Below, piece by piece: positions 4,977 through 51,406 of a stretch of DNA of 64,000 nt. Positions within the stretch are counted from its first letter, which is position 1. Every line of letters starts with the position of its first letter. The translations under genes were made by a program, and so were the position numbers. The notes below the pieces were generated by a model. It saw only the letters and a list, made by a program, of their open reading frames with translations, was not told the origin of the DNA and did not search any database. Origin of the DNA: a virus (lineage: Duplodnaviria; Caudoviricetes); the IMG/VR virus record IMGVR_UViG_2724679223_000002, positions 1-64,000 of that record, one strand, 5' to 3'.

Positions 4977-5311
4977 AATGTGTACACCTCCCCTTTTATC
5001 CATATTTTTGCTACTATCTCATTATTTACAAAATCAATGCTTTCTATCTTATCAATCTCGTATTTTGAAATTGTTTTTATTAGTTCTTGAAGGATCCTTG
5101 AATGATTGTTTTTCACTTGTAAAATTCCAGTATTTTTTTTATTCAAATAAGGAACTCCGTATAGGGTATTCAATGCCCATTGTTCCTTATTTTGCTCTAA
5201 CTCAACTCGAATAGCTTGGATAATGTCCTCTGTGCTCTCTACAAGTTCACAAACGCCATTTTCATCGAATAGGATGTCACAATCTTTATCTAGTTTAATA
5301 CTTGTTGCCAT
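4973..5311 (-). CDS. Baseplate gp25/gp46-like sheath initiator
   Basis: QAIRVEL...W..NT.YGVPY pattern; position between spike and J. Confidence 0.6.
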   Translation of the reverse strand: MATSIKLDKDCDILFDENGVCELVESTEDIIQAIRVELEQNKEQWALNTLYGVPYLNKKNTGILQVKNNHSRILQELIKTISKYEIDKIESIDFVNNEIVAKIWIKGEVYTL

Positions 5312-5319
5312 ATTGCCTC

Positions 5320-5967
5320 CTAACTAGCCGGATCCGTTTGTGTACTTGGATCTCCACCAGGTTTGTATCCATGTGTATGGTTCTTTAGACTAATGCCTCC
5401 ACCTGTCACATCTTTACTAGCACCAACGCTTCCTTCTACCGATACATTTCCGCTTTGTGTAGTATTCCCTGTCTGCGTTGTATTTCCATTATGTGTCAAA
5501 TCACCATTCAGAGTCAGATTGCTATTGATTGTCATCTCATTAGCCCCGGTCGTGATGATGATTTCTCCATTTCCTTTGATTTCTATCCTAGTTCCCTTTC
5601 CTTCGAGAATGATGTCTTCGCTATTGCTTTCATAATCCCCTTCACAAGAACCTATGATATATGGCTCGTTCAGGCTAAACCTCTCCAAACTCGTATCTTC
5701 TGACAAAGTAGCTTCAGAAAATCCAACCCAAACTTTATCTCCAGCTTTTCGAGGGAACTGAAACTTCCAACCACCGAACTTCAAGAAATCTAATTTTACA
5801 TCAATCAAAGGTGGATATGACATCACTTGTCCGCATAGCTCCCTCTTGGGAATAATTTGCACTGTACAGGTCCCCGCCGCATAGTTGATTTCTGTAATCG
5901 TAGCTGGTAAGGATGTATGGATTTCATTATTCGCATCTTGTATCATTGCTTGTACAAATTCAATCAT
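5320..5967 (-). CDS. Baseplate spike (Gp138/gpV-like)
   Basis: OB-fold-like N-terminus, beta-helix repeats (GNTTQT), GISLKNHTH apex. Confidence 0.85.
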   Translation of the reverse strand: MIEFVQAMIQDANNEIHTSLPATITEINYAAGTCTVQIIPKRELCGQVMSYPPLIDVKLDFLKFGGWKFQFPRKAGDKVWVGFSEATLSEDTSLERFSLNEPYIIGSCEGDYESNSEDIILEGKGTRIEIKGNGEIIITTGANEMTINSNLTLNGDLTHNGNTTQTGNTTQSGNVSVEGSVGASKDVTGGGISLKNHTHGYKPGGDPSTQTDPAS

Positions 5968-6821
5968 TCCACGACCTCCAACATTGCATTCACGGAGAAA
6001 TTAAAAACATCTCCGGCTACATAGTTACATTCTTTCACAATGCCTTTTCCATTCCACAAGGTCGATTCTACTTCAATGAGTTGCCCAATCTTCACAATTG
6101 GAATAAGAAAGGCTTCTATACTGTATTTTGGCTTTTCTTTTTTCTTACTACTTTCCTTTTTTGCTTTTTTGCTATCTTTCTTTTCTTTTTCCGCTTCCGC
6201 TTTTTCTTCTTTTTTGTCTACCCGGACTAAGCCCTGTTCACTTCCTAATTTCAAGACATTGCTGTAAGCCTTCCCGGGCTTTTTCAATTCAATCGTGCTA
6301 TCTGTAAATCTTGCAATCGTTCCCGTATCTTTTGCGAGTACGGAAATAACATTAGATAGGCGATTGGAGAAAGCTTTTCCATTGGGATATGTCGTATCTT
6401 TCCCAAGCTCTTTTATATCAATTTTAAAAGGAACTTGTTTTTCCAACTGCTTCAATATTTCACTTGCTTTGATACCTGCCTTGAACTGCATGTTGATTGG
6501 AGTGTTCGTGTAAGCCCTATTGTTAGGACTTGCAGTAATAGTCGTTACCATGTCATTTTCATTCCGATTGGTACTCACGCTTTCCACAATCCCGGCGAAA
6601 ATCACTCCGTGAAGTTCTCGATAGCCTGCATCAATCGTGACAGCTTGATTCGCTTGTATCTTATTTTTCGTGGTTTCTGATAGGTTATATATCCGAATCG
6701 TAGCTGTATCGGACTTATTATCATCCGTACACTTTACATCAAATTCCACGTCTAAATCTTCATAGTCAAAGATTAAGCCACCGACTGTAATAATCCGTAC
6801 TTGTTTCCATAGCTTTGCCAT
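5964..6821 (-). CDS. Baseplate hub protein
   Basis: ATIRIYNLS...IDAGY...IFAG pattern; upstream of spike. Confidence 0.75.
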   Translation of the reverse strand: MAKLWKQVRIITVGGLIFDYEDLDVEFDVKCTDDNKSDTATIRIYNLSETTKNKIQANQAVTIDAGYRELHGVIFAGIVESVSTNRNENDMVTTITASPNNRAYTNTPINMQFKAGIKASEILKQLEKQVPFKIDIKELGKDTTYPNGKAFSNRLSNVISVLAKDTGTIARFTDSTIELKKPGKAYSNVLKLGSEQGLVRVDKKEEKAEAEKEKKDSKKAKKESSKKKEKPKYSIEAFLIPIVKIGQLIEVESTLWNGKGIVKECNYVAGDVFNFSVNAMLEVVE

Positions 6822-13671: not shown

Positions 13672-14781
13672 CTATCTTTTCAAGTTTACAATCATTCCCA
13701 TCGTATGAATATTTCTGACTTGTACAGAAAGTTCTGTCACAATCAAACCTTTCGTATTATCCCCAGTTTCTCCCATGTATTTATGAGATAATCCACGAAG
13801 AACTTTTGCTTCAATGTCATCATGATTCAAAATCATCATTTCATCTCCACGTAAATTAGTTGTCGGAATAATAGGAAGAGTCCCGAAATCTGTTGCAATA
13901 TAAGTAGCTACAGCCCCCAAAGTATGTTCTGCTGGCGGTGCTTGGATGTAGTCTTTTAGCAACTTGGAAATCTTTACCTTTTGAATTCCCGGAACATATA
14001 ACGCATAGTTTCCACCGTCTACGTCTCCACCTACTTCAAAGATTTTTCGTAGAACATTTCCAATCATTTCCAAAGAAATATCTTGTCCCCCTGCATCGAC
14101 TAACTGCCCTTTGACTAAGAAACGTTTGACTCCGTCCATTCCTCTTTTTGTTCCTTCTTCAAATTTTTTCCCTTTGATAATCGCTTTCTCAATCTTTCCT
14201 AACACAGTATCCATCTTTCTAGTTTGTTCCAATGTGTAAACGTCCACTCCTCCAGAAGATGGAACATTAATTGCTTCAGAAGTTCCTGATACAGAAATTT
14301 CTTCGCGAATAATTTGAGTGTTGTTGTCGTAGTTCACACCCTTTTTATAGGTTGTTCCTTGAAGATCTGCTCCTTCAGCGATGTTATCGTTGATGAAAAA
14401 GATTTCTTCTCCAATTTTGTAAGATGCCGCTGCTGTCGTAGTTAATTGTGCTCTTTTCACTGTCAAAACATTTTCAGCAATATTTGAGATTTCAACGACT
14501 TCATCTCCAATTGCCGCCAAACATCCTTTTTTAAAGATAGAACCATCTTCTACTGTGAAGGAAGTCTCTGAATTCGAAGAAACTGCTTTTGTCAAAATCG
14601 TTTGCGTTCCCTCAGAAGAGTAGTCTACCCAAGTTATTTTAGTTTGAGTTGCAGTTCCTAATCTTCCCAATGCAACTAAATTTAAATATAACGGAGCTCT
14701 GTTAGCGTTTGTATATGCCAACAAAGGTGTTAAATCTTCCTTATGTCCTACAATTCTATCCACTGTAATCATATTTTTCAT
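13672..14781 (-). CDS. Major capsid protein (SU10/DUF5309-like)
   Basis: NNTQIIREEISVSGT, KRGMDGV, Y.TDFG motifs; after scaffold. Confidence 0.75.
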   Translation of the reverse strand: MKNMITVDRIVGHKEDLTPLLAYTNANRAPLYLNLVALGRLGTATQTKITWVDYSSEGTQTILTKAVSSNSETSFTVEDGSIFKKGCLAAIGDEVVEISNIAENVLTVKRAQLTTTAAASYKIGEEIFFINDNIAEGADLQGTTYKKGVNYDNNTQIIREEISVSGTSEAINVPSSGGVDVYTLEQTRKMDTVLGKIEKAIIKGKKFEEGTKRGMDGVKRFLVKGQLVDAGGQDISLEMIGNVLRKIFEVGGDVDGGNYALYVPGIQKVKISKLLKDYIQAPPAEHTLGAVATYIATDFGTLPIIPTTNLRGDEMMILNHDDIEAKVLRGLSHKYMGETGDNTKGLIVTELSVQVRNIHTMGMIVNLKR

Positions 14782-14784
14782 TTA

Positions 14785-15390
14785 TTATTCCCCCTTTTCT
14801 AATTCCGCTTTTTTGCTTAATAACAATGTAATTCTTGCCCGATTCATCATAGAGTTCCCTTTTTTCTTCAATTCTTCCAACTCCGCATTGACCTTTTCCA
14901 AGTCTGTTTTAGGCTCTGTTTTCGTGACCGCTGGTGGTGTACTTGTCCCTCCTGGTTCAAACAAGTCCTTGTATTGTGTTTTTAGAGAATTCAATTGTTC
15001 ATCTAAGCCTTCAATCTTATCTTCTTTGAATTGAATTTTAGAGAAATCTATCTTAGCCATCAGCAATTCTCCATATTTCACTCCTGAAAGAATTTTTTCA
15101 ATCGCTAATTTCTTGACATTTTCTAAAGTTCCCCCAAGTACTAATCCTTGTTTTAAGTCTTCCTCTGTGACCTCTTTTCCAAGTTTTTCTTTCAAAAATG
15201 CTTGCACTGCTGTAGCCCCAACTTGCTTCGTCATTTCCGGCTTTCCCGCCAAATATCCCTTGACTTCTTCATCTGTCAAAGGAGTTTTTACTTGTTTTTC
15301 CACTTCTGTCACAAAGCCATTTTTAGAAAGAAATTCCTTGTTTTCTTCCTTTTTCAAATAGTCTATGACTTCTTGTTCATTTTCAATCAT
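14785..15390 (-). CDS. Capsid scaffolding protein
   Basis: GLDEQLNSLKTQYKDLF motif; start 15390 after AGGAGG. Confidence 0.7.
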   Translation of the reverse strand: MIENEQEVIDYLKKEENKEFLSKNGFVTEVEKQVKTPLTDEEVKGYLAGKPEMTKQVGATAVQAFLKEKLGKEVTEEDLKQGLVLGGTLENVKKLAIEKILSGVKYGELLMAKIDFSKIQFKEDKIEGLDEQLNSLKTQYKDLFEPGGTSTPPAVTKTEPKTDLEKVNAELEELKKKGNSMMNRARITLLLSKKAELEKGE

Positions 15391-16204
15391 TGTTTCCTCC
15401 TTTATTTTTCTTAATTGATTCTGCCCAGCATCGACATCCAAATTCCTGTCCGGGTAAAATATCTTCATCTACTCGAAAGATTTTGCCGTCTTTTTCAATA
15501 TGTTCCATCCGCACTCGATTATCTTGCATCGTATGCCATACATAGTATTCAATTCCGTTTTCTAGCCATAAATCTTGCAACTGGGAAGCATAAATATTTC
15601 CAGTCTGGTTTCTCGCCCAAAGCTCATTTCTTCTATTTGCCCATTCATGGAGTTTTTTAATCTCTGTTTGTCCTAATGTCCTATTTCTTTCCAATTTTTC
15701 AATCAGATGTTTCACGTCACCGCTTGGAGCATAGTAGTTTTTTAAACGATTCAATAGCTTATCTATGTCTGTGTTTGATATCTTCCCTTGCAGCAACTTA
15801 TCAAATCTATGATCTAAAGGAGCATTAAAAGATTTTAAAATCTTTTTATACTCTTGTTCTTTGAAGGTTTCCATTTGTTGTGGAAATGTCTTTGACATTT
15901 TTTGCATGTGTAAATAATTTTCCCGAATCCAAAATTTTGCTCCCGTCAAATCAGGACGCTTTAATTCTTCGTCCGTTAAAGTTCGCCAAGACTCAAAGAC
16001 ATGCTTATTCGTAGCAATCGCTACTTTTGTCAAATCTTCTATCATTTTTTTCTTTTCCAAATTAGAGAATTCTATGTCCGGAAGTTCTGTAAGTTCCTCT
16101 TCTTTCATTGCCTCTTTATACTTATTCAAAAGCTTCTTCGAATGAAAGGTAAATACTCTTTGAAGTTGCTTCTCTACATTATGGGGAAACAGGCTCTTCT
16201 TCAT
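15383..16204 (-). CDS. Minor head protein (SPP1 gp7/Mu gpF family)
   Basis: YVWHTMQDNRVR..H...PGQEFGCRC. Confidence 0.85.
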   Translation of the reverse strand: MKKSLFPHNVEKQLQRVFTFHSKKLLNKYKEAMKEEELTELPDIEFSNLEKKKMIEDLTKVAIATNKHVFESWRTLTDEELKRPDLTGAKFWIRENYLHMQKMSKTFPQQMETFKEQEYKKILKSFNAPLDHRFDKLLQGKISNTDIDKLLNRLKNYYAPSGDVKHLIEKLERNRTLGQTEIKKLHEWANRRNELWARNQTGNIYASQLQDLWLENGIEYYVWHTMQDNRVRMEHIEKDGKIFRVDEDILPGQEFGCRCWAESIKKNKGGNND

Positions 16205-17672
16205 CTAAACCAAGCTCCTTTATCAGTTCATCTCCTTGTCTTTTTAATAATCCTGCTATTCGTTCTTCTGTGTCAATCTCTTGTAATATTCGCAAAGACT
16301 CTATCAATTTTGTTCGATACGATAAATCTGTTTTCGTTCGTCTAAGTTCATCTTCTACGTTAATATCTGCAATATTGACATATTTAATCGCACTCTCAAT
16401 ACTTAGTATTCCTGAGCTAATCCCCTGTACTGCTATGAGTATCTTTTCTCCCACTCCCAATGAAAGAATATCTTTTCCAGTAATTATGACCTCTAACTCT
16501 TGATGATACAGCTCCTGATATCCCCACCGAAGCACTTTTTCAAACCCGGTAAACACACGATCCCTCTTTGCCACTACTGTTGAAATCGTTCTTTCCATAT
16601 CCCGTCTTTTTGCTTCCCCAGATGCGGAAGAACCATTTTTATTCAGTCCAAATGCTTGCTCATTTGTCCCGGTATTTTGATAGATTTGCTCGATAATATT
16701 TTTACGATGAGCATTCCATTCTTCCGTTTTTGTATTCATCTGAATTTGTTTAATTTCCTTGTCTTCCGGTTCTACGATGACAATTCTATCCTTTATTTTG
16801 ATAGCCAAGTTTCCTTCCTCATCGTATTCCAAAGCACCATCGGGAAATTGTAGTAGCGGATTCGCTACTTTATCAAAAGCCTGACTTGTTAGAGTATCAC
16901 CAATCACAAGCTCTCGATTATGGATGACTAAGTCTTCTACATAGTCGCTTCTGTGAAATAAATTATGAATTTCAACTACCTGCCAATTTTCATATTTTTT
17001 AATCCACCCTAGTCCATCTTGGACGGCTCCATATTCTCTTAAATCAAGCGGATAAGGCATTTCAGATAATCCTTCTTTTTCTATCTTGTATTTCCGATAT
17101 TCCGTTTTTCCTTTTTTGTAGATTTCTGTTGTTAGTACTTTTTTCTCTTCTTCAAAAACAACATAGTAATCTACTAAATCACTGTTCAATTGGCTTTTTA
17201 CAGCAAAATATTGATACGGTGGAATGATGTCTATATAGAATTTTCCATCTACAATATAGCCTTTTAAGAGTAGTTTTCCTGCATAGCTTTGAATCGCTAC
17301 CGCTTCCGCCGTCTTATCTTGCAAGTCAATTTCTTCTAATATTTTTTTCTTTTCCTCTTCGATAGAAATGGTTGGTTCTGTATTAGAAGCCAGCTCTGCA
17401 TAAAGCTTCGTCACTGCACCCAATATGTTATTTCCCACAACCAAGTCCTTGAACGGTCGATAGACTCTTTCCAAAATCCGCCCGTTTCTGTTAAATTCAG
17501 CGTATTGGTTTTTATCATTTAAGACTCCCATGTATTCCAATTTCACTCTCTTCAGAACGTCTTGATAAAAGACTTCGGAGGATTTTCCTGCGAAAAGCTT
17601 TTGATTCCGGCTATAATTCATATATATTTCACTGTTTCTATGCTTTCGATACGCCTCAAATATCTCTTGCAT
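16179..17672 (-). CDS. Portal protein (SPP1 gp6-like)
   Basis: 497 aa after terminase; ASGEAKR motif. Confidence 0.8.
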   Translation of the reverse strand: MQEIFEAYRKHRNSEIYMNYSRNQKLFAGKSSEVFYQDVLKRVKLEYMGVLNDKNQYAEFNRNGRILERVYRPFKDLVVGNNILGAVTKLYAELASNTEPTISIEEEKKKILEEIDLQDKTAEAVAIQSYAGKLLLKGYIVDGKFYIDIIPPYQYFAVKSQLNSDLVDYYVVFEEEKKVLTTEIYKKGKTEYRKYKIEKEGLSEMPYPLDLREYGAVQDGLGWIKKYENWQVVEIHNLFHRSDYVEDLVIHNRELVIGDTLTSQAFDKVANPLLQFPDGALEYDEEGNLAIKIKDRIVIVEPEDKEIKQIQMNTKTEEWNAHRKNIIEQIYQNTGTNEQAFGLNKNGSSASGEAKRRDMERTISTVVAKRDRVFTGFEKVLRWGYQELYHQELEVIITGKDILSLGVGEKILIAVQGISSGILSIESAIKYVNIADINVEDELRRTKTDLSYRTKLIESLRILQEIDTEERIAGLLKRQGDELIKELGLDEEEPVSP

Positions 17673-27904: not shown

Positions 27905-28096
27905 TTATAACATTTTCAATTGATATTCCAAATCTTTAATCTCCTCTTCCAATCTTCTTTCTTCCATTTTCAAGTGCTTTTTGTAGTCTTCTTCTTCTAC
28001 TGCCGGAATCGCTTCCTGTAAATAAAGCAAAGCTTGCAATTTATACTTATATGCCATTCCCAACCGAATAGCTTCCTCTACATTCCTTAATTCCAT
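27905..28096 (-). CDS. Hypothetical coiled-coil protein
   Basis: RBS AGGAGG. Confidence 0.55.
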   Translation of the reverse strand: MELRNVEEAIRLGMAYKYKLQALLYLQEAIPAVEEEDYKKHLKMEERRLEEEIKDLEYQLKML

Positions 28097-33863: not shown

Positions 33864-34049
33864 TTGAATTTTCTTTTAAATTGTGATATAATATTCTGTA
33901 AATAAAGTTGATTTTTACAATGATAAATGTAATTTTTTATATTTTAACTACGTTTGTAGCTTATATTTTACTTATATAATAATTTTTGTAATTTGTCAAC
34001 TGTTTTTTTACGTTTGTTTATAATTTTTAAAAAAATAATTACGTTTGTA
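33864..34049. promoter_or_regulatory. Immunity region: convergent promoters and operator repeats
   Basis: + TTGAAT-17-TATAAT with TG extension (33864-92); - TTGACA-17-TATAAG (33999-71); TACGTTTGT at 33949, 34009, 34040. Confidence 0.6.
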
Positions 34050-34066: not shown

Positions 34067-34693
34067 ATGAAAGATATAGGAAAAAAAATTGCTTATTTAA
34101 GAGAGAAAAATAAAATGACTCAAGTAGAGTTGGCAAAAAAATTAGGTATTGCCACCCAAAGTATTGTAAATTATGAAACAGGAAAACGCTTAATTCCACT
34201 TGATGTATTAGAAAAGACAGCTATATACTTCGGTATTCCCATTGAAAAGTTTTTTAATGTGAAAGATGAAGACTTTAAAAATATTGAATCTTCTGTAAGC
34301 GAGTTTAAGAAAATTCCTATTATTTCCCGTGTCAGTGCAGGAAGAGGGGAATGGGCAAACGAAGAAATTTTAGATTGGTTGGAATTACCGGTTTCTATCT
34401 GTAAAAATGCAGATTTTGCTACCTTTATCAAAGGAGATTCGATGGAACCTCGAATCAAGGATGGAGAAATTATTTTGGTAAAACAAGATATATGCTTAGA
34501 TACCGGAGATATTGGAGTATTTCGCATTGGTGATGAAGTATTCTGTAAAAAGTTTTATTATAACCCGATCACCGGAGAAAGCATGTTAAAATCTATCAAT
34601 ACCAAGTATGATCCAATTTATGTAGATAAAGACGATTGGGAGAAATATAAGTGTCTTGGAAAAGTGTTATGTTCCATTGATTACAACTTTTAA
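34067..34693 (+). CDS. CI/LexA-like repressor (XRE HTH plus S24 peptidase)
   Basis: TQVELAKKLG...YETGKR; SAG, GDSMEP, FCKK. Confidence 0.95.
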   Translation: MKDIGKKIAYLREKNKMTQVELAKKLGIATQSIVNYETGKRLIPLDVLEKTAIYFGIPIEKFFNVKDEDFKNIESSVSEFKKIPIISRVSAGRGEWANEEILDWLELPVSICKNADFATFIKGDSMEPRIKDGEIILVKQDICLDTGDIGVFRIGDEVFCKKFYYNPITGESMLKSINTKYDPIYVDKDDWEKYKCLGKVLCSIDYNF

Positions 34694-35029: not shown

Positions 35030-35205
35030 CACTTATTTTCATTTTTGTTGCACATTTTCACATTTTTCTTTCATTTTTTCTCACAAATTTTCACAAACAT
35101 TCTGAGGAAAATCTATCTTTATACTTCAATTTCTTTTTTAATTTCAATACTTTTCTTTCATTTTTTATTTTCTCTTTAAAATCTCAAACTATATATCCCC
35201 CCACA
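35030..35205 (-). repeat. Mu-type end with transposase-binding repeats
   Basis: TTTTCTTTCATTTTTT at 35064-79 and 35151-66, variant near 35032; terminal CA at 35204-35205 (TG on minus). Confidence 0.6.
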
Positions 35206-36035
35206 GCTAGCACTACTTCTCTATCTGCTCGCAACTGTTTAGAAGCGAATCTGAAAACGTACCATGCTTTCTTTATCGCTGACAAAATTACTTTTTTGTC
35301 ATTTTTAATTTCTTCGTCAGCATATTCAAGCAAAGAAGGCTTTTCTTCTATTTTTTTTAATATTTCTTTTATTTTTTCTTCTTTAAAAGGGTTAGTGAAA
35401 TCCCCTTTTACTTTTTTTAGAATCTCTTCAAGATTCTCATATTTTTGTGTCTCCTCGACAGCTTTCAAAATATCTTTGTCGTCGCATTTTTTTAGTAAAA
35501 TACTCTCGATATTTTGTTTTATGAGTTCTCTTTTTTGTTCTTTGTTTTCTATATCACATTTTAATTTATATTGCATTGTTCGCAATATTTCATTAGAAAT
35601 GTTTTCTAAAACTACATCTTTATCTTTTCGTAGTCTTAAAGAAGCAAAATCTAAAGGGATAGCATACTTACCCTTCATCGCTTGTAAGACGAATTCTTTA
35701 TCGTCTTTCAATTCGTCAGACGCTTTATCTAATGCCCAGTTATCTAGTGATAACATTTCGAGCATAAAATCTTTATCTGCTCTTATTTCTTCACTTGCGA
35801 ATTTTAACAATCCAATTCCTCGTTTTGCAGCTATATCTTGTTTTATAACTGCTCTAACGATTTCTTTATCGTTTTGAAATTGCTCAGTAAAACGAAATAC
35901 AGAAGTGTTAATTTTTAAGACTTCAATTAAAAAGTCTCTATTTTTTAACAATTCTTTTTCATCGCTTGTTGGTTCAGTGTGACTATTTTTAATCTTTTCT
36001 AAAAAAATTTCTTTCGCTAGGTTCTCATTTTTCAT
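35184..36035 (-). pseudogene. DUF4116 repeat protein truncated by the prophage 1 insertion
   Basis: Repeats ASEEIRADKDFML / ASDELKDDKEFVL / ASKQLRADREVVLA; last repeat breaks at the TG end. Confidence 0.7.
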
Positions 36036-36055: not shown

Positions 36056-36859
36056 TTATTTTTCAATAAACTCTGCTGTTTGAGAGTTCACTCTTAAAAT
36101 ATTATATTGATAATTATTGTCGTAGAAATATACTGAAAAGGTTTCTTTTTCAAAAGAAACACTTATTTCTTCGCAACCTCTATTTTCTAAACCTTTTTTA
36201 ATGAAGAAAAACGCTTTTCTCACGTCTTCTCCTTCAAGGTTTTTCAAAACTTCTTTTTGCAGCTCAGCGAAGTTGATTGCTTGCGATTTCTTTTCCTCTA
36301 TTTTCACAAAATCTCCATAGACAACATCACATAAACTAATGATTTGTCTATTCTTTTTTACTCCTGTGAAGTATCTCTCTTCTTCTAAAGAGATTCCACA
36401 GGTTTTTGCAAATCTTTCAAGAAGCTCTTCGGCAGCTTCTATTTTTGTATCTTCCAAGATCTTTGCAGTCATTGCTACAAATTCTACCTTTTTCAAAGTT
36501 TCTTGAGAAAGATATTTTTTTGTTTTTTCTGCAAAAATCGCTGGAATCATAATTTTTTTAATTTTTTCAGGTCTTACTTCTGGAACTACGAATTCTTCAT
36601 AAATTCCATAGTATTTGTCGTTAGAAGCCATTTCATTTCTTGTAGCTTCAACTTCTACTTCCAAAAGTACAATACCATAGAGAGGAAAACTATTCAATTC
36701 AGAAATTGGCTTGAATAGATATACCACATCAGTAGAATTATTACCTCTGCTGTTACTTTCCCATCTATCGTTTTTTGTAACAGACAAAGGTTGTAGCCCC
36801 TCTTTTAATATTTTTTCTAAATCAGCTACATCACAGTTGTGGTATAATTTCATTTCCAT
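36056..36859 (-). CDS. ADP-ribosyltransferase-fold protein
   Basis: LYH...LEKILKEGLQP, VVYL, YEEFVV...V.PEKI (H-Y-E-like ART/KptA/DarT pattern). Confidence 0.55.
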   Translation of the reverse strand: MEMKLYHNCDVADLEKILKEGLQPLSVTKNDRWESNSRGNNSTDVVYLFKPISELNSFPLYGIVLLEVEVEATRNEMASNDKYYGIYEEFVVPEVRPEKIKKIMIPAIFAEKTKKYLSQETLKKVEFVAMTAKILEDTKIEAAEELLERFAKTCGISLEEERYFTGVKKNRQIISLCDVVYGDFVKIEEKKSQAINFAELQKEVLKNLEGEDVRKAFFFIKKGLENRGCEEISVSFEKETFSVYFYDNNYQYNILRVNSQTAEFIEK

Positions 36860-36879
36860 TCCTCCTTTTTTTCTTCTTT

Positions 36880-36917
36880 CTTGATTATAGTATACACTTT
36901 AATCAAGTGTATGTCAA
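36880..36917 (-). promoter_or_regulatory. Promoter with operator palindrome
   Basis: TTGACA-17-TATACT; CTTGATTA (36880-87) / TAATCAAG (36900-07). Confidence 0.75.
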
Positions 36918-36928
36918 TAGATATATTA

Positions 36929-36958
36929 AAAAAAACAGGATTTTACTCCTGTTTTTTT
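36929..36958. terminator. Bidirectional intrinsic terminator closing the mini-array transcript
   Basis: AAAAAAACAGGA-TTTTAC-TCCTGTTTTTTT. Confidence 0.75.
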
Positions 36959-36976
36959 CTTGTAAAGGTTGAATAA

Positions 36977-37132
36977 GCTTCTTTATTTTATATCCCACAT
37001 TTACATTTCAATCTGCTTCTATTATAAAAATTTTCTAGCTTATATTCTACCTTTACATTTCACTTTGTTTCTATTAAAAAAAATTGCAATTTTATACTCT
37101 ATATTTATATTTCAGTATGTTTCTATTAAGGT
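36977..37132 (-). CRISPR. Orphan degenerate mini CRISPR-like array (3 repeats, 22-nt spacers)
   Basis: 30-bp repeats at 36999-37028, 37051-37080, 37103-37132 (52-bp period); minus-strand consensus nnnTTAATAGAAACAnAnTGAAATGTAAAT. Confidence 0.7.
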
Positions 37133-37159
37133 TTCGCAGAGTATCTTTTTGCTACTTTC

Positions 37160-37188
37160 AATATAACACACCCAAAATTCAGTGTCAA
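37160..37188 (-). promoter_or_regulatory. Promoter of the mini-array
   Basis: TTGACA (37188-83), 17 bp, TG-n-TATATT (37165-60). Confidence 0.7.
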
Positions 37189-37221
37189 ATATTTTTTTAT
37201 AAAAAGAGTAAGCGATATAGC

Positions 37222-37491
37222 TTACCCTTTTCTGCAACCTAAGATATGTTCTCTGATTAACTGAATATCTTTTTTAATATCGACCATATTCGTTTGAATT
37301 GTAGATTCTAATTTTTCCACTTTTTTATCGATTTCTTTATCTCTTGCGTCACTCCATTCTCTAAAATTCTTGGTATCTCTATCATACAGTTCTTTATCTA
37401 ACTTCTTGTTAATCCAAGACATCAAGTATTTATGATAGCCAAAAATTGCTCCTCCGACTGTTAAAAACAATAGTAATGTTTCTTTTTCCAT
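37222..37491 (-). CDS. Single-TM coiled-coil lysis-module protein
   Basis: N-terminal TM helix. Confidence 0.55.
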   Translation of the reverse strand: MEKETLLLFLTVGGAIFGYHKYLMSWINKKLDKELYDRDTKNFREWSDARDKEIDKKVEKLESTIQTNMVDIKKDIQLIREHILGCRKG

Positions 37492-37883
37492 TATTCCCCC
37501 TTGTTGTATTTCGCTTCGACGTATGATTTGCTGAATCTACTTGCCGTTTTAGAACCAAATAGAAAACCGAACAATAATTTGACTGCTTCCGAAAATTCTT
37601 TATCCATTGGAATAATTGGCGTTTCTTTTCCTAGCAACACAAACCCTACCATGACCAGAAACATGATGATATGCATAAATAGCCAAGAAAGCATAATCAA
37701 AGGAATCACTCCATCACGGTTTTTTGTTCCCATTTTTTCCAGGAATGTTGCTTTTGCTTCCCAACTATCTACTTCAATTTGTGCCAATTTCGCTCTCGCT
37801 TCTAATTTGGCAGCCTCATTGGTAGGTAAGAATTTTCCAACCACTCCCATAATTGTTTCGATTGCCATTTCTGAAAGTTTCAT
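37491..37883 (-). CDS. Holin (3TM-like)
   Basis: Hydrophobic segments, GFLFGS near C-terminus. Confidence 0.6.
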   Translation of the reverse strand: MKLSEMAIETIMGVVGKFLPTNEAAKLEARAKLAQIEVDSWEAKATFLEKMGTKNRDGVIPLIMLSWLFMHIIMFLVMVGFVLLGKETPIIPMDKEFSEAVKLLFGFLFGSKTASRFSKSYVEAKYNKGE

Positions 37884-38011
37884 CTTCTTCCTCCTTTCGT
37901 AATAAAGCTCGCAATTGCACTAATAATAGGGGCAACTGCATAAATAATTCCGCATGTAAATCCTAATACAAAAGGACTACTGCTAACATATTGATAAAGA
38001 CGATCTATCAT
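37880..38011 (-). CDS. 43-aa membrane peptide MIDRLYQYV...KGGRR
   Basis: ATGA overlaps at both ends. Confidence 0.5.
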   Translation of the reverse strand: MIDRLYQYVSSSPFVLGFTCGIIYAVAPIISAIASFITKGGRR

Positions 38012-38586
38012 ATATCAACCTCCTTAATAAACTTCACAAAGAAATCTACCACATCGCTTTCTACAGAAAATTTCAAAGCTTCGTTGGGATTACTTCCAAA
38101 GAAAGGCTCCACTAGGATATAAGTATCTTTACTATGACAAATACCATAAGCTCCTCTTGTATTGTCATTTACCACCGGGATAATTCCATGCGTTTCTATG
38201 TATTTTCCCAATACCTTTCCCTGTTTTAGTCTAATTTTACTTCCAAAGGTATTTTGGAGCCTTGCCATGAACATGCTAGCCAATTCTTTCGCTTGCTCGT
38301 TTTTATGATAAACTAAGCATTCGCACCCATGTGCTTGACTTGCTCCCGCATTGTAATGAAGTTCTAAGCAATACTTATAGTTGTGCTTATTTAACTCTTG
38401 CAGGACTTCCCGCATTTCCTGCCCATAATATTGCTTTGGTTTTCTTTCGTAAATATCAACCAGTTCCGGTATCTCGGTTTTGATTTTTTCTGCGATCCGT
38501 TTCCAGTAATCGAATTCCGAGCCTACGATATTGGAATAGGCTCCTTTGCTTCTTTGATTATGTCCTATGATTAAAGCTATTTTCAT
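38008..38586 (-). CDS. Endolysin, N-acetylmuramoyl-L-alanine amidase (Amidase_3)
   Basis: IGH, SE, ELHYNA, ILVEPFF Zn motifs. Confidence 0.9.
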   Translation of the reverse strand: MKIALIIGHNQRSKGAYSNIVGSEFDYWKRIAEKIKTEIPELVDIYERKPKQYYGQEMREVLQELNKHNYKYCLELHYNAGASQAHGCECLVYHKNEQAKELASMFMARLQNTFGSKIRLKQGKVLGKYIETHGIIPVVNDNTRGAYGICHSKDTYILVEPFFGSNPNEALKFSVESDVVDFFVKFIKEVDI

Positions 38587-39263
38587 TTTTTCGCCTCCCA
38601 TGTAATTTTCTCAATTTGCTTTACCGTATTGGCTTGTTGTAGTTGTATTGCTAAAGATCCATATTCATTGAATATTTTTTCTTTTCTTAAAGCTCTTTCA
38701 TCTAATACATCTAAGAGTTGTGCATAAGTAAAAGTTTTGATAGAATTATCTGCTAATATCCAAGCCCTTGTATCTTCTTCTGTTTTTTTCTTTCTTCGAA
38801 TTGCTCTTGCGACATCTTCGAAGTTTTCTAAATCTTTTTCTCGAACTTGAAATAAAGACCCGTGAACTTCGATATTTTCAGAAATTTTTTGTTCTCGTAT
38901 GTGTTTCAATTCTTGCCTTTTTATTTCTCTTACTTCTTCTATATTCACTTCCCAAGTTTTCCCGTTCCATTTATGATATTTGCTTGGTTGTTCTATCATT
39001 TTGAATTCTTGCGTTTCTTCCTCGAAAATTTCCCCGATTTTTAACCGGTAAATTCCCTCTTGAAATAATCTGGTCTTACTTTTTTTCTGAATAGAGTTGC
39101 TCTCTATATCGTAATATACGAGGACTTCGTTATAACTATCTGCTTCAAAAATAATATATTCTTGTGGGTTTTCGACAGAAAACTCTTCATCAGCATTTAA
39201 AATTTTGAACGGAAATAACTTTCCTGTTTTAACTTCTTCTATTTTGAATATATATTTCTTCAT
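38583..39263 (-). CDS. Tail fibre-associated protein, DUF4376
   Basis: PSKYHKWNG, WILADNS. Confidence 0.7.
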   Translation of the reverse strand: MKKYIFKIEEVKTGKLFPFKILNADEEFSVENPQEYIIFEADSYNEVLVYYDIESNSIQKKSKTRLFQEGIYRLKIGEIFEEETQEFKMIEQPSKYHKWNGKTWEVNIEEVREIKRQELKHIREQKISENIEVHGSLFQVREKDLENFEDVARAIRRKKKTEEDTRAWILADNSIKTFTYAQLLDVLDERALRKEKIFNEYGSLAIQLQQANTVKQIEKITWEAKK

Positions 39264-39278
39264 TTCTTCAACTCCCTT

Positions 39279-40094
39279 TTACCATATTTTAATTCTAAGA
39301 GTTTGCTCTTTTTTATCTTTTATTACTCGTGAAAGTGCAGTACTATATACTTCGTATCTAGTTGTAATTAACCAGTTTTTCGTCATTTTTAATTGGGTAC
39401 TATCAATTTCGATATTTATTTCAGAGGGATAGGTATTTGAGTTCCCAGTTTTTTCTTTGAGGTCTATCGTAACGTAATTGTATCTTGTGTATACAGCCAT
39501 TAGATTAAGGTTTTTAAATGTTTTAGGAGTTATATCCCCAACCCCATCCACATATCCAAAGGATTTACCTGTTTCTCCTACTGTTAAAATATACTCATCC
39601 GTATTTTTTAAAGGTTCATTTTCAACTTCTTCTATTAAAATATTAAAACGTCCAGAAAAAGATTGCTCAATTAATATCGGTGGTTTATTTTTATCTAAAA
39701 CGAATTGCGTATCTGATTCTTTTTTTATATATAATTTAGTACCATTTTCAAAAGCAATAACAAGATTTTCGTAAGGAACTTTTGAATCGAATATACAATC
39801 GACAGTCCCTCCCCCGAAGTACAAACTTTTAAGTAGATAATCTCTTTCTTCCAAGACTATAAATATGTTCTGTGCGTACAGATACATTTCGGTGACTACT
39901 GCATTATATGGATATTTCGTAGGAACGGAAGCATAACTTTTCCCCCAAAAATCATTGGGAAGGACAACTTGCCCTGAGGTTTTCCCTGCTAACGTTAAGA
40001 CATCTTGGTCGTTGAAAGAGATTTGCTTCCCTTCTTTTCCCAATTCTTTCGCAATATCTTTAAGCGATATTCTTCCACTACTGTTTAATGACAT
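39279..40094 (-). CDS. Putative receptor-binding adhesin (gp38-like N-terminus)
   Basis: MSLNSSGRISLKDI..ELG...ISFND.DV..LAG...DFWGKS after an S74-bearing fibre. Confidence 0.55.
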   Translation of the reverse strand: MSLNSSGRISLKDIAKELGKEGKQISFNDQDVLTLAGKTSGQVVLPNDFWGKSYASVPTKYPYNAVVTEMYLYAQNIFIVLEERDYLLKSLYFGGGTVDCIFDSKVPYENLVIAFENGTKLYIKKESDTQFVLDKNKPPILIEQSFSGRFNILIEEVENEPLKNTDEYILTVGETGKSFGYVDGVGDITPKTFKNLNLMAVYTRYNYVTIDLKEKTGNSNTYPSEINIEIDSTQLKMTKNWLITTRYEVYSTALSRVIKDKKEQTLRIKIW

Positions 40095-41706
40095 CTTCCA
40101 GCACCTCGATTCTCTTTAGCAATTCCTTATTTGCTTCTATCAATAACCCTACCATATTTCCATATGCTACGGATAAATATCCGTTCTCTGTTTCTCGAAC
40201 AGCTTCAGGAAGTGCTTTCTGAACTTCTTGTGCAATGACTCCTACGTGCCTCTCTTTATTCATAGTGAAAGTGTATCCATTTAATTTTTTTAGAATTTTC
40301 AATGGGTTTTGTATTTTCTCAATATTTTGTTTTAATCTTTTATCTGAAAGACCTGTCACTGTTCCTTGTGCTAAAATATCTCCACTTGCAGTAATGTTCT
40401 GAAAACTAACCGAAGTATCTTGTTTCGCAAAAGACAATCCTAAACTTTGTGGGATATATAGCCTGTCTGCTTGGTTTTGTGACAATAATTCATCATGTGA
40501 ATGCTTGTTTCGAGCATATCTTTTATCCGATTGTCCCTTGTCATAGTAATTCGATAAATCTGCTGTGATATCGGGGGACACTTGCCCCCTTAATTTAATC
40601 CCATATACTTTGTAAGTTCCGCTAGAAGTCATTACAATTCTATCGTCCTGTACTTCTCCACTTGCATACCAAAATTTGAAATTTGCTCCTATTTTTGCGG
40701 GAATGGTTGCCGTTTGTTGAGTGTTTTGGATTTGTAAAAATTGGTAATTTCCTAATGGTTTCCCAAATACCAGATTACTGGAATTCCCGTTAAAAATTTC
40801 TTCGAATTCAATTTTTAAAGGACTTGCCGTACTACCACTACCAGAAGATTGCGGTACGGTAAAACTTATATTTTCACGGGTAGAGTTTGTTAAATCAAAA
40901 TGCAAAGTTACTGTTTCCTCTTCTTGACTAGAGGAAATTCCTAAAATTCCAATACCGTCCTTTCCATGTTTTCCTGCAACGGTAGGAATGTCTACTTCTG
41001 TGCTTTGCCCGTCTCCATATTCTAATCGCACCCGGTTGTTATCTATTGCGGTAACCGATATGATTCCAACTCCTCTATCTCCTTTCTGTCCTCGTGGACC
41101 TGTAAGACCTTTCTCGCCTTGTACCCCTTGTGGACCTCGTTCTCCTGTAAATCCTCTAGGACCTTGTTCTCCAATCGGTCCTCTTTCTCCCGGTTCTCCT
41201 TTTTCCCCTTTTTCTCCTTTTAACTTGCTTTTTTCTTTTTGGATATAGTTTCTAAGTTCTTCCTTAATAGTTTCCCCTTCTGCTGAAATTGAGGATGTAG
41301 TTACTTCAATCGCTTGGGTAATAGCTTCTTCTACTTGCGTATTGCTGAACGGCTCTCCGAGCTTCGTTTCTTTCGTTTTAATGATAATATCTTCCAACGT
41401 TACCCGATCGCTGCCGTTGATTAACGTAATTCTTAATGTTGTCCAACCATTGACCGTAAAGCAACTATAATGAATCGGAAATGTTACCTCATTTTTCCCG
41501 GTAATTTTTACCGTTTCTGCGGAATATTGCCCATTGGGAAGTAAGTATTTACATTCTAAATTCTTCCCTTGCAAACTATTTTCTCCAAACATATATAGAA
41601 ATTGTAAATGAATATGCGGTAGTCCTTTATCCCCAGTCGCGAATGTATGACCGTCTACCACTTCACAACGGTTAGAGTGGACTAACACATTTGTAATATG
41701 TCGCAT
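40078..41706 (-). CDS. Tail fibre: BppU-like N-terminus, collagen repeats, C-terminal S74 chaperone
   Basis: About 16 Gly-X-Y triplets; LSDKRLKQNI, GVIAQEV, SVAYGNMVGLL. Confidence 0.85.
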   Translation of the reverse strand: MRHITNVLVHSNRCEVVDGHTFATGDKGLPHIHLQFLYMFGENSLQGKNLECKYLLPNGQYSAETVKITGKNEVTFPIHYSCFTVNGWTTLRITLINGSDRVTLEDIIIKTKETKLGEPFSNTQVEEAITQAIEVTTSSISAEGETIKEELRNYIQKEKSKLKGEKGEKGEPGERGPIGEQGPRGFTGERGPQGVQGEKGLTGPRGQKGDRGVGIISVTAIDNNRVRLEYGDGQSTEVDIPTVAGKHGKDGIGILGISSSQEEETVTLHFDLTNSTRENISFTVPQSSGSGSTASPLKIEFEEIFNGNSSNLVFGKPLGNYQFLQIQNTQQTATIPAKIGANFKFWYASGEVQDDRIVMTSSGTYKVYGIKLRGQVSPDITADLSNYYDKGQSDKRYARNKHSHDELLSQNQADRLYIPQSLGLSFAKQDTSVSFQNITASGDILAQGTVTGLSDKRLKQNIEKIQNPLKILKKLNGYTFTMNKERHVGVIAQEVQKALPEAVRETENGYLSVAYGNMVGLLIEANKELLKRIEVLEDVIKQ

Positions 41707-46403: not shown

Positions 46404-49400
46404 CTAGTTACTTCCATTTGGTTTTTTTCTTTGTTCCTCCCAACATTCTGTCCACATTCTTCTAATTTTCCCATTCAAATCTTCAATGCCATATACATCT
46501 CCGTTGTGAGTGATATTGAACGTCATATTCACATTTGCCGCCTTATCTGTGTAATAAGCATTTCCCAGCTGTGTATCTTCCTCTCTTCTGATATTGTTGA
46601 TTGCGTCAAATCCACCAAATCCCGCTGCCTCTAATTCATAGCTGAACTTCTTCATAATTCCATCCGCTATTCCTAAGACATCTTTGAAATTTCCTGCTTT
46701 TTCCAATTGTGCTTGGAAATTTTCCGCCCGGATGAATTTTTCTATCATTCCTTGATACAAAGCACTTTCACTGAATGCCTTAACCAAAGAATTTTTCACG
46801 CTATCATATAGAGATTGTCCCAATGCTTTTGTGAAACTAGAGAACTTATGTTCTTCCAATCCTGCGTTCATAGCACTCGATAAAGCGTTCTTTAAGTCGT
46901 TTATCCTATCGTTAAAATCACTCCACGGAAGCATTTTGTTGATTAAGGATAAATCTATTCCATTGCTTAACAGCTCTTTTTTTATGACATCTAAAGATTG
47001 TTTTACTTGCTTTTCCATAATGTCTAGGTTCTTCAACTTCTCAAAATCAAAGTCACTAAACAACCCTTTGAAATCAAGCTTCCCGTTCTTCTTAATGTCC
47101 ACGAGCTTATTTGATATTTTCTCAAAAGCTCGTGTTAAGTAGTTGTCTAAATCACTAAATACCACATCATATGCCACGCTAGAAGCGTTTTTAAATATCT
47201 TTTCAAAGTAAGACTTCATAGAACTTAAGAATCCACCATTTCCACTTGCAAATCCCTCTATCGTGCTATTTCGCACGTCCAACATAGAAGTAATTAACAC
47301 TTGGTTATTTTTCGCCATTTCTTTAATGGTTTCGTTGTATTGCTCTCCAACTAATCCCATTTGTTTGAATTGCTCTGTGTATTCCTTAATCAATTCTTTT
47401 TCTGTCTTATATTCCACGCCTGTAAAGCTTTCTAGTGTAGAACCTTTGAACAGATCCGCCTTTTCTTTTTCCAAGTATTTAATCTGCTCTACAAACTCAT
47501 GTACCTGTTTCTTCCATTCTTCAATAGAAGATTCTGTTAAGTTTCTTCCGGTTGCTCTTCGTAATGTTTCGTGATTAACGTTATGCAACACGCTATCCAA
47601 TTGCTTCATTTCACCATCTGTAAACGCATCCAATTCTGACTTACTAAACCCTAAGTATCTTAATAACTCGGATTCTCCAATATCTACTTTGGTATATGTG
47701 GATTTACTTTTCTTTCTAAAACCTGAACGGTATCTTTTAGAACCTTTTTCTATAGCAGTAATATCCGCAAAATGTTTTCCCGCTATCATAGAATGATGTA
47801 ACAAATCAAAGTTGCTTTCTCCTCCGAAAATCATTTTGATAGTTGGATTTTTCGCAATATCTGTCAACATTCTATCTGCAAAGCTTTTAATTCTTTCGGA
47901 GTTTTGTTGAATAGCTTGCGTTAATTGCTGTAATGCGGAAATCTGCTTCTTATATGCTTCTTCATTTTCTTTATTTCTTGCGTCAATTGCTGCGGCTTTT
48001 TTCTTTCCGCTTCTTCCGAATAGAGAGCCTATTGTTCCTACTAGAGCAATTCCACCAGTAACCGCTCCAGCTATTGCCCCTAATGAAGTCATTCCTGCGG
48101 TGAAAGCACCAGAAGCTCCACTAAACATTCCGGTAATAGAAGACATTCCACCCCAATTTTTCAAAGCACTTCCGATACTAAAAACATTCCCAAGAACATT
48201 TCCAATACCGCTCATTGTCTTGCTTCCTGTTGCACTTCCTAATTGAGAGAATGTATTTGCAAGCAATTGAATTCCTTGTCCCCATTTTTGCCAAGTCGTC
48301 AAACCTTGTGCCATTACATCTTGTTGTTTTTTCTTAATTTCATCTAAATACTTTTTGTAATCTTTCAAGAATTTTTCGTCTAATAAACCATCATTTACCA
48401 TTTTCTCTACTATTGCAATTTGTCCTTCAATAGCTGGAATTAAAGCGTTATAACGAGAAATTTGTTCATCAATTGGCATTTTTTCAATTGCTTCTGCAAA
48501 TTCTTGTAGTTTTTCTTTTTGCTCATCAAGTGGTAATTTACGAAGTGTATATTCCATATTTTTCAATTGGTCTTCCAATTCTTTTAAAGCATACTCGTCA
48601 ATTCCTTTTATTTTCTTGCGTTCGATTATTTCTTTTTGAGCTTCTATCATTTGTTCTAAATCTTTCTTTTTTTGTTCAAATGACTTTGCCATAGACTCAA
48701 TGTTAATTCCCTTAGAAAGATATGAAATTTTATCTGCTAGAATGTCTAACTTGACATTATTGATTGCTCGATTGATTTCATCAATATATTTTCCATATTT
48801 ACCTTTTGCTTTTTCCAATTCTGCTAGCTTTTCTTCATTTGTAAATTCTTTTGTAATGTTAGCTCCAATTTCAGACATTAACTTTTCAAATCCCTCTCGG
48901 AATTTCTTAGCAACATCTTCGGCAGAATTTGCTAAATCTGCAACATTTCCTTCAGTAGGAACTACATTTTTATCTTTCCCTTTAGCAACTATAGGATTCA
49001 ATGCAGCTTGTTGTTGCTCCCAATATTCTATACTTGCTCCATTTTGTTGTTTATTCTGATAATCAAGGTTTACAGCTTCAATCTCTTTTCCTATTTTTCT
49101 TAATAACTTATTTGCTGCTTCTATAATCCAGTTGACAAAACTTCCTATTGCATTTGCTACACTACCTATAGCTTTTCCAACCATTCCGAATACACCATCT
49201 CCGGTGAAAGTATTTAATAGAAATGTGTATAGCTGCTTTCCAACATAGATGATATTAGAAATGAATTCTTTTAGATTTGTTAAGACTTTTCCCCACACTT
49301 GAGTCACATTTTTATTCTTAGAAAGAATATCCCAAAGTAGTTTTAAAGCTAATATAACTGCTCCCACAACTGCACCAATTAAAGCTAGTTTTCCTAATAA

Positions 49401-51329: not shown

Positions 51330-51406
51330 AATTTCATCATAATTTTCTGCTTGTGGAGAAGTTTTCCGGTTATGGTAGTAATGTTCCGCTGCTTGAATAA
51401 GAACAT

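Follow-up and report, generated by a model that had tools for sequence, protein, structure and literature searches.

Positions 36,929 to 37,188 of the viral DNA analysed here probably hold a prophage-borne type I-B Cracr array, a small set of CRISPR-like guides which would make the host's own Cascade repress transcription of the cas genes and would also compete for the Cas proteins. We put the probability of this reading at roughly three in four. The array imitates the CRISPR array of the host, Fusobacterium necrophorum, and its guides copy the host's own cas-silencing RNAs, so its most likely role is to turn the host machinery to silencing its own genes. The stretch that was analysed, called the window below, is 64,000 nucleotides long and covers positions 1 to 64,000 of IMG/VR record IMGVR_UViG_2724679223_000002, an 84.7-kb provirus which shares 92.9% identity with Fusobacterium phage phiFN37 across the part that aligns. 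An earlier note on the window had suspected that the locus makes an RNA which co-opts host Cas6 and Cascade, either as a decoy or as guides aimed at -10 promoter boxes. The analysis supports that suspicion, and matches to cas6 promoters favour the -10 box guides, with one correction: the predicted targets are the promoters of the host's own cas operon.

The array is read on the minus strand and consists of three 30-nt repeats, each followed by a 22-nt spacer, at an exact period of 52 nt. Repeat 1 (37103..37132) is followed by spacer 1 (37081..37102, ATAGAGTATAAAAT...), repeat 2 (37051..37080) by spacer 2 (37029..37050, GTAGAATATAAGCT...), and repeat 3 (36999..37028) by spacer 3 (36977..36998, GTGGGATATAAAAT...). 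Re-extraction of all six features gave exactly the strings that the earlier note had quoted, and all three spacers begin with RTRGRRTATAA, as it had also said. Its promoter and terminator held up as well. The promoter (37160..37188, minus strand) reads TTGACA-17-TATATT, with a TG upstream which makes an extended -10, and matches the consensus at 11 of 12 positions. The intrinsic terminator (36929..36958, minus strand) is a hairpin with a U run, whose 12-nt arms (36929-36940 and 36947-36958) are perfectly complementary around a 6-nt loop; it is absent from the list produced by the consensus terminator scan. One promoter and one terminator thus enclose three different 22-nt spacers.

Between these features lie a leader and a trailer, both on the minus strand. 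The leader (37133..37155) is about 20 nt long if transcription starts near 37153, as the position of the -10 box suggests, and part of it is complementary to the seed of spacer 1. The trailer (36959..36976, 18 nt) follows spacer 3 directly, with no fourth repeat, which leaves unit 3 without a downstream repeat; it is complementary to the end of repeat 2 and the seed of spacer 2 (15 nt, 93%).

The periodicity of the array is far above chance level. A repeat search returned a 52-nt unit in three copies with spacings of 52 and 52 and identities of 100, 79 and 63% to the reference copy, and Tandem Repeats Finder gave a period of 52, 2.7 copies, 80% matches and a score of 165, the top of the window's 73 rows. 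A pattern made from the repeat core had three exact matches plus one three-mismatch match elsewhere, against 0.38 expected, and four matches were reached in 0 of 100 shuffles.

The array lies on the minus strand downstream of the tail-fibre and lysis genes of the prophage. Upstream of it are the tail fibre gene (40078-41706) and the amidase gene (38008-38601), and small ORFs then continue down to 37222. The last of these, an 89-aa ORF (37222-37491), is followed by a palindromic, terminator-like hairpin GTAAGC..GCTTAC (37208..37225, minus strand, listed on the plus strand by the scan), which terminates the lysis-region operon. The array is therefore isolated as its own transcription unit. When eight host Cas proteins were searched with tblastn against the whole 84.7-kb provirus, nothing was found below E = 0.1, which indicates that the provirus has no cas genes; the earlier note had said so for the window, and the statement now extends to the entire element.

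Beyond the array terminator, a second promoter (36917-36889) drives a 267-aa ORF. No Pfam, PHROG or PDB sequence match was found for this neighbour. Its AlphaFold model has a pLDDT of 85.3, and the top fold match is DarT at E 0.049, with no matches at E <= 0.001, so the DarT-like fold is suggestive only.

The repeats were compared with CRISPR repeats of possible hosts by building a pattern from the three window repeats and searching it in a collection of species-representative genomes. A total of 76 stretches matched, and they include long arrays with a 65-68-nt period in F. necrophorum ATCC 25286 and in several Clostridia. Repeat 3 is identical to ATCC 25286 arrays A and B at 27 of 30 positions and repeat 2 at 26 of 30. 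Repeat 1 is more distant from these arrays (22-23 of 30, with 23 of 30 to array B), and matches a repeat of the host's CreR-like mini-array, psiR1, at 25 of 30. The alignment to host repeats which the earlier note proposed thus gave 22-27 of 30 identical positions, and by this likeness the repeats of the phage array are host CRISPR repeats. The hosts compared were ATCC 25286 and one metagenome variant, neither of which is this prophage's own host strain.

The same likeness bears on whether the locus is a CRISPR element at all. Tandem 52-nt periodicity alone would also be compatible with DNA-level repeats, such as iterons or other protein-binding sites, or with an ordinary small RNA unrelated to CRISPR, and no Rfam family reached its gathering score in the window, with only chance-level terminator look-alikes around the locus. 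This explanation is extremely unlikely, since the repeats agree so closely with those of host CRISPR arrays and the array is homologous to a host mini-array across repeat, spacer and repeat.

ATCC 25286 carries array A, array B and a third array with a related repeat. The third array adjoins a complete I-B operon (cas6, cas8b1, cas7, cas5 and cas3), and array B adjoins a second cas6, a truncated cas8b and a type III module which includes a Cas10-like protein. Five of the 65 ATCC 25286 spacers match the provirus over 34-38 nt, so CRISPR immunity is directed against this phage lineage. Array B accounts for four of the protospacers, which have a 5' flank of CCA (three) or CCG (one), and the single array-A protospacer is flanked by ATT, not CCN. 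With CCA or CCG beside four of the five, the PAM appears to be CCN.

A family-wide pattern search over 131 genomes, with one mismatch allowed, was as noisy as its reversed control. Repeat-linked exact matches from this search were found only in ATCC 25286, and six inspected loci proved to be chance matches within coding sequence.

The host itself has small arrays which resemble the phage's units. In ATCC 25286 (host A), the DNA upstream of cas6 (contig L098, 9684-9760) contains a 21-22-nt guide (GTGGGATATAATATGG...) set between a repeat-like sequence and a second repeat, which is degenerate. About 130 nt past this mini-array, and 48 nt before the cas6 ATG, CCA is followed by GTGGGTTGTAATATG..., a putative target which repeats the host guide with a few mismatches. 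The contig end that carries the mini-array has an exact 70-nt overlap with the contig of the complete I-B operon. The cas6 promoter here (promoter A) was read by eye as TTGACT-18-TGTAAT; the consensus scan does not list it, and it is weaker than the consensus match of promoter B, described next.

Host B is a metagenome contig (L159) with a full cas6-cas8b1-cas7-cas5-cas3 operon, whose Cas8b is 83% identical to that of ATCC 25286. The contig starts inside an equivalent mini-array (L159, 1-60) with guide TTAGAATATAAAATAAAAAT, which matches 19 of 22 positions of its candidate target, CCT followed by TTAGAATATAATATAAAAAAT (TTAGAATATAATAT...). This target lies inside a TTGACA-17-TATAAT promoter (promoter B, 12/12 consensus), with the -10 box at guide positions 7-12. 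When the two hosts are aligned, guide and target co-vary at positions 1, 3 and 5, and such covariation is the signature expected of a genuine guide-target pair. The layout is also the published one of CreR-type autoregulators, as described in the accessible part of Liu et al. (bioRxiv 10.1101/2024.10.29.618823), and the accessible part of Shmakov et al. (bioRxiv 10.1101/2023.03.03.530964) reports it for type I-B mini-arrays upstream of cas6.

Further host variants were sought in two ways. A family-wide DNA search with the leader region of host B was dominated by AT-rich noise, and the one good alignment, with 85% identity across 58 nt, was to ATCC 25286. In a Cas8b search over the 131 family genomes, nothing outside ATCC 25286 was closer than 43% identity. 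Four Cas8b clusters (P0002-P0005) at 74-84% identity may bear promoter variants which fit units 1 and 2 exactly.

The phage guides resemble both the host guides and the cas6 promoters. The best alignment of the complete phage array is with the host-A mini-array, and it runs through a repeat, the guide and the next repeat (129 nt, 74%, E 2.8e-16). Spacer 3 is identical to host guide A over its first 11 nt, and pairs with promoter A at 11 of 12 scored positions within 1-14, adjoining CCA. Spacer 1 agrees with host guide B at 12 of the first 14 positions, differing at 1 and 6, and pairs with promoter B at 11 of 12 positions within 1-14 (6 and 12 ignored), with position 1 mismatched. Spacer 2 agrees with host guide B at 11 of the first 14 positions (2-11 identical, 1 different) and with promoter B at 17 of 22, again with a mismatch at position 1. 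That position belongs to the seed, so the exact targets of units 1 and 2 may be other promoter variants.

For a wider comparison, the host CRISPR-locus DNA (69,375 bases) was scored at every CCN-flanked 22-mer, 3,888 in all, ignoring guide positions 6, 12 and 18. Seven distinct phage spacers were used: the three of the window, two more from phiFN37, the one found in viral records L011 and L013, and that of the first unit of record L014. The top-ranked site was cas6 promoter A or B for 7/7, which does not amount to seven independent tests because the spacers are mutually related. The guides of phiFN37 unit 1 and of L014 pair with their promoter at 12/12 scored positions within 1-14, and within its first 19 nt the L011 spacer mismatches promoter B only at positions 6 and 12. 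In type I Cascade, positions 6 and 12 are flipped out.

Match counts for guides like these have to be read with care. In shuffled provirus sequence, the best 22-nt match to such short AT-rich guides averages about 16.5-16.7 of 22, and near-matches therefore arise by chance. The target assignment rests on the PAM, the position, the covariation and the identity to host guides, and not on counts alone. Two groups of sites were set aside on such grounds. Exact CCN-flanked matches to TAGA-class seeds in ATCC 25286 are no more frequent than chance predicts and fall in housekeeping genes, one of them beside NAD synthase. A site upstream of cas10 (near L095 6406) matches spacer 1 at 17 of 19 positions; it has an AAA flank and resembles a degenerate unit more than a target.

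The conservation of the spacers helps to separate guides from decoys. A Racr-like decoy would tie up Cas6 and Cas7 in short, unproductive complexes, and its spacers would have no targets, their likeness to host guides being left from descent from a captured mini-array. The repeats do mimic host repeats closely, a strong promoter ahead of three to four units would yield many competing RNAs, and Racrs are described as solitary repeat mimics in the accessible part of PMC10651486. Competition is also a part of the published Cracr mechanism, according to the available text of Liu et al. The sequence of the spacer would be needless for a pure decoy. In an alignment of 11 units, however, there is no variation at spacer positions 2, 4, 7-11 and 14 while positions 6 and 12 are free to vary, and the two seed classes found in the phages track the two host cas6 promoter variants. 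A pure decoy is therefore unlikely, and guides that silence cas promoters explain the spacers better.

A different target was considered for spacer 2, an early promoter of the phage itself at 33971-33950 (minus strand), and this would fit an array which steers host Cascade against competing or co-resident phages. The match is 18/22, with 14 of the first 15 positions, and lies over a TTGACA-17-TATAAG promoter beside a CI-like repressor; virus-targeting viral mini-arrays are also cited in the available part of Shmakov et al. The match turned out to be indistinguishable from chance, since 8 of 100 shuffled proviruses give at least 18/22 and 13 of 100 reach the seed score. Its flank is TAA, not the CCN seen in four of five protospacers, whereas cas6 promoter B matches spacer 2 about equally well (17/22) and has a CCT PAM. 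In addition, phiFN37 has a unit identical to unit 2 of the window, yet its own early promoter does not match that unit. An array for conflict between phages is thus very unlikely, and the cas6 promoters remain the preferred targets.

Related phages keep the architecture of the locus and change its units. The phiFN37 array has four units, and its last two are the same in sequence as units 2 and 3 of the window. At least two units are present in L014, and L011 and L013 each carry a single unit together with a degenerate repeat. The promoter architecture of the window array also precedes the arrays of phiFN37, L011, L013 and L014, so that promoter and terminator are kept in five phage records while unit content turns over. 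The earlier note had suggested a search of relatives for spacer variation, and this is what the search found: one to four units, with differing spacers. In scans of viral collections, which returned 9 and 19 stretches, only L011, L013 and L014 hold units; all the others match by chance, for the most part within coding sequence. The first metagenome pattern scan gave 0 matches.

Such turnover within a constant frame is hard to reconcile with a non-functional relic, that is, host creR DNA which was acquired by a phage, duplicated and left with no present role. The host itself bears a degenerate copy of the unit, without a CCN flank, upstream of cas10 (L095 6365-6429, E 3e-4), which would agree with a relic. 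The phage locus has a near-consensus promoter and a terminator conserved in five phage records, its seeds are intact, its units turn over while the architecture is kept, and contigs from RNA libraries lie over it in three studies. It is highly improbable that the array is a relic, and a Cracr array in present use fits these observations.

The RNA-library contigs were found in 3/3 runs, from three studies, at 36952-37128, 36971-37141 and 36994-37136, although strand, ends and level cannot be read from contigs. They are 229, 171 and 196 nt long and together cover 36952-37141; two of the three carry the four-unit form. The contig of run X17 ends at 36952, inside the terminator hairpin, and those of X19 and X20 stop in the leader, at 37141 and 37136, without loose ends. 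In the flanks (36700-36950 and 37160-37500) there is no RNA contig in X17 or X19, and one poor piece of 35 nt in X20. A DNA run, X12, covers all 30 bins. The pattern is at most a weak hint of a discrete array transcript.

Altogether these observations suggest a mechanism in which the array would be made as a strongly promoted, self-terminated small transcript, whose three units imitate the host's CreR-like mini-array (repeat, 21-22-nt guide, repeat). Host Cas6 would cut the array repeats, and each short guide would load into the host's type I-B Cascade. The guide would then pair over about 12-17 nt, adjoining a CCN PAM, with the -10 region of the promoter of the cas6-cas8b-cas7-cas5-cas3 operon. 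Because the guide is short and only partly paired, Cascade should bind without recruiting Cas3. Bound Cascade would repress the cas operon, and surplus guides would compete with immune crRNAs. The units may serve different promoter variants, with unit 3 of the ATCC 25286 type and units 1 and 2 of the variant-B type or its relatives, so that one phage could silence the I-B systems of several F. necrophorum strains. The phage could then remain as a prophage in hosts that have arrays directed against it. The steps of processing, loading, repression and anti-CRISPR effect are proposed by analogy with tested V-A, I-E and I-F cases.

A broader role can be imagined, in which the array, besides silencing cas genes, is a general toolkit of Cascade-guided phage repressors. 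Unit 2 would also act on the early promoter (33971-33950) of the neighbouring Mu-like element, the complementary leader and trailer would gate guide maturation, and type III complexes would be poisoned too by the short guides, since the host's type III locus uses the same repeats. This is very improbable.

If that reading is right, it would matter for F. necrophorum, a pathogen of cattle and humans against which phages are under consideration. An RNA which silences the I-B system would help to explain how phages of the phiFN37 type persist in strains with targeting arrays, and the array would bear on which phages may work against CRISPR-carrying strains. It would also provide a natural I-B Cracr example from a further phylum, one in which as many as four guides are multiplexed. 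Because guide and promoter co-vary between the host variants, the pairing rules are directly testable, including the tolerance at positions 6, 12 and 1.

No paper on this array or on phiFN37 was found in the literature, and the supplements of Liu et al. and Shmakov et al. may list the array. The principle is already known. The Cracr strategy is experimentally established elsewhere, as the accessible part of Liu et al. reports, and viral I-B mini-arrays were predicted in Clostridium and Fusobacterium viruses in the accessible part of Shmakov et al. (2023).

Several known systems can be set beside the array. An ordinary CRISPR array has unrelated spacers near cas genes; the spacers here are 22 nt long against 35-38 nt in the host, they are interrelated, and no cas genes are nearby. 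Racrs, in the available text of Camara-Wilpert et al. 2023, are likewise phage-encoded CRISPR-repeat mimics which engage Cas proteins. They are described as solitary repeat units without guide function, whereas the spacers here are conserved and match both a CreR-like guide and cas promoters. The host's CreR-like mini-arrays share repeat type, guide length and seeds with the phage array. They have one guide and are found within the cas locus, a short distance upstream of their target, whereas the phage array is prophage-borne, multiplied and driven by a stronger consensus promoter.

The closest likeness is to Cracrs, and the features which define them can be followed one by one. Cracrs are encoded on viruses or plasmids, and the array lies in a provirus with no Cas homolog below E 0.1, outside any CRISPR-cas locus; its repeats resemble the host's CRISPR repeat (22-27/30). 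At least nine PAM-proximal nucleotides are common with the host CreR/CreA strictly in unit 3 and nearly so in units 1 and 2. Cracr guides pair partly with a cas or creT promoter next to a PAM, and the guides here are partly complementary to cas promoters beside a PAM (CCA in promoter A, CCT in promoter B). At least two different guides per transcription unit make a Cracr array, and there are three here. In the accessible text on Cracr arrays, these too are found in phages or prophages outside the cas locus, with short guides that share the PAM-proximal part of the host CreR and match cas promoters, and with several units per transcription unit, which are directed at different variants of a single subtype across related strains. 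Guide length is also close, at 22 nt here and mostly 17-21 nt for viral I-F guides in the same source. The host guides here (21-22 nt) are about as short as the viral ones, unlike the cases described in the accessible part of the Cracr paper.

In the available text of Liu et al., every array that is listed belongs to I-C, I-E or I-F; these arrays have two or three spacers and come from Pseudomonadota, Bacillota and Actinomycetota. The word Fusobacterium is absent from that main text as available, and its supplementary tables may list such loci. Relative to this survey text, the array here is of type I-B, in Fusobacteriota, and with up to four units in relatives, and its function is predicted. 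The I-B cases in the accessible part of Shmakov et al., in Clostridium perfringens phages and a Myoviridae assembly matching Fusobacterium pseudoperiodonticum, share the layout of a host mini-array upstream of cas6, a target between mini-array and cas6, and an I-B PAM, and there too the phage copy retains the seed and diverges downstream. Those cases are single mini-arrays, whereas the array here is a tandem of three units (one to four in relatives) in F. necrophorum phages, with seeds for at least two promoter variants. What is new is thus the host species, the phylum relative to the available Cracr survey text, and the tandem three-unit I-B array.

The predicted transcript of the phage array folds with a z of -5.75, and two internal pairings are possible within it. 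In one, the leader, which precedes the first repeat, would pair with the spacer 1 seed (37137-37158 with 37080-37101); in the other, the trailer, which follows spacer 3, would pair over 15 nt at 93% with the end of repeat 2 and the seed of spacer 2 (37043-37057 with 36961-36975). Spacer 2 was also compared with a promoter, TTGACA-17-TATAAG, which lies at 33950-33999 and has the CI-like repressor gene (34067-34693) behind it rather than ahead of it. The likeness of the spacer to the -10/start region of this promoter, 18 of 22 positions, is within chance expectation, and the promoter was rejected as a candidate target.

Immediately past the array is a 267-aa ORF with its own promoter, TTGACA-17-TATACT, accompanied by a palindromic operator-like sequence (36056-36917 in all). 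Arrays of the same kind in two related phage sequences are also followed by this promoter and palindrome, but the downstream genes differ from the 267-aa ORF. The AlphaFold model of the ORF product has a pLDDT of 85.3, and its top fold match in the PDB is the ADP-ribosyltransferase DarT, a tentative resemblance at an E of only 0.049 and a TM of 0.28-0.36. The nearby DUF4116 gene (35184-36035) encodes 283 aa versus 385 aa in the related Fusobacterium phage phiFN37, and the genes past it differ as well, which is consistent with the insertion at about 35200 proposed in the earlier note.

Five of the 65 spacers of F. necrophorum ATCC 25286, all five from arrays A and B, match protospacers on the provirus, at 27966-28003, 38426-38459, 47446-47480 and 51337-51372 in the window and at 76127-76162 of the 84.7-kb provirus beyond it. 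The 5' flank is CCN in four and ATT in one. Adjoining array B in a sequence of this strain (L095) are a second cas6 and a truncated cas8b (14629-16340), the latter ending after about residue 381 and 97% identical to the intact copy. A stray complete repeat with a single 36-nt spacer lies 3.9 kb from array B (L095 8166-8195) and is closely followed by a 300-aa gene and a SAVED-domain gene.

Upstream of the Cas10-like gene in the same sequence (4202-6226) is a mini-array unit in degenerate form (L095 6365-6429). Its spacer-like part matches spacer 1 of the phage array at 17 of 19 positions, but its flank is AAA. It could represent a relic or, alternatively, a second regulator of the host, placed in the type III locus.
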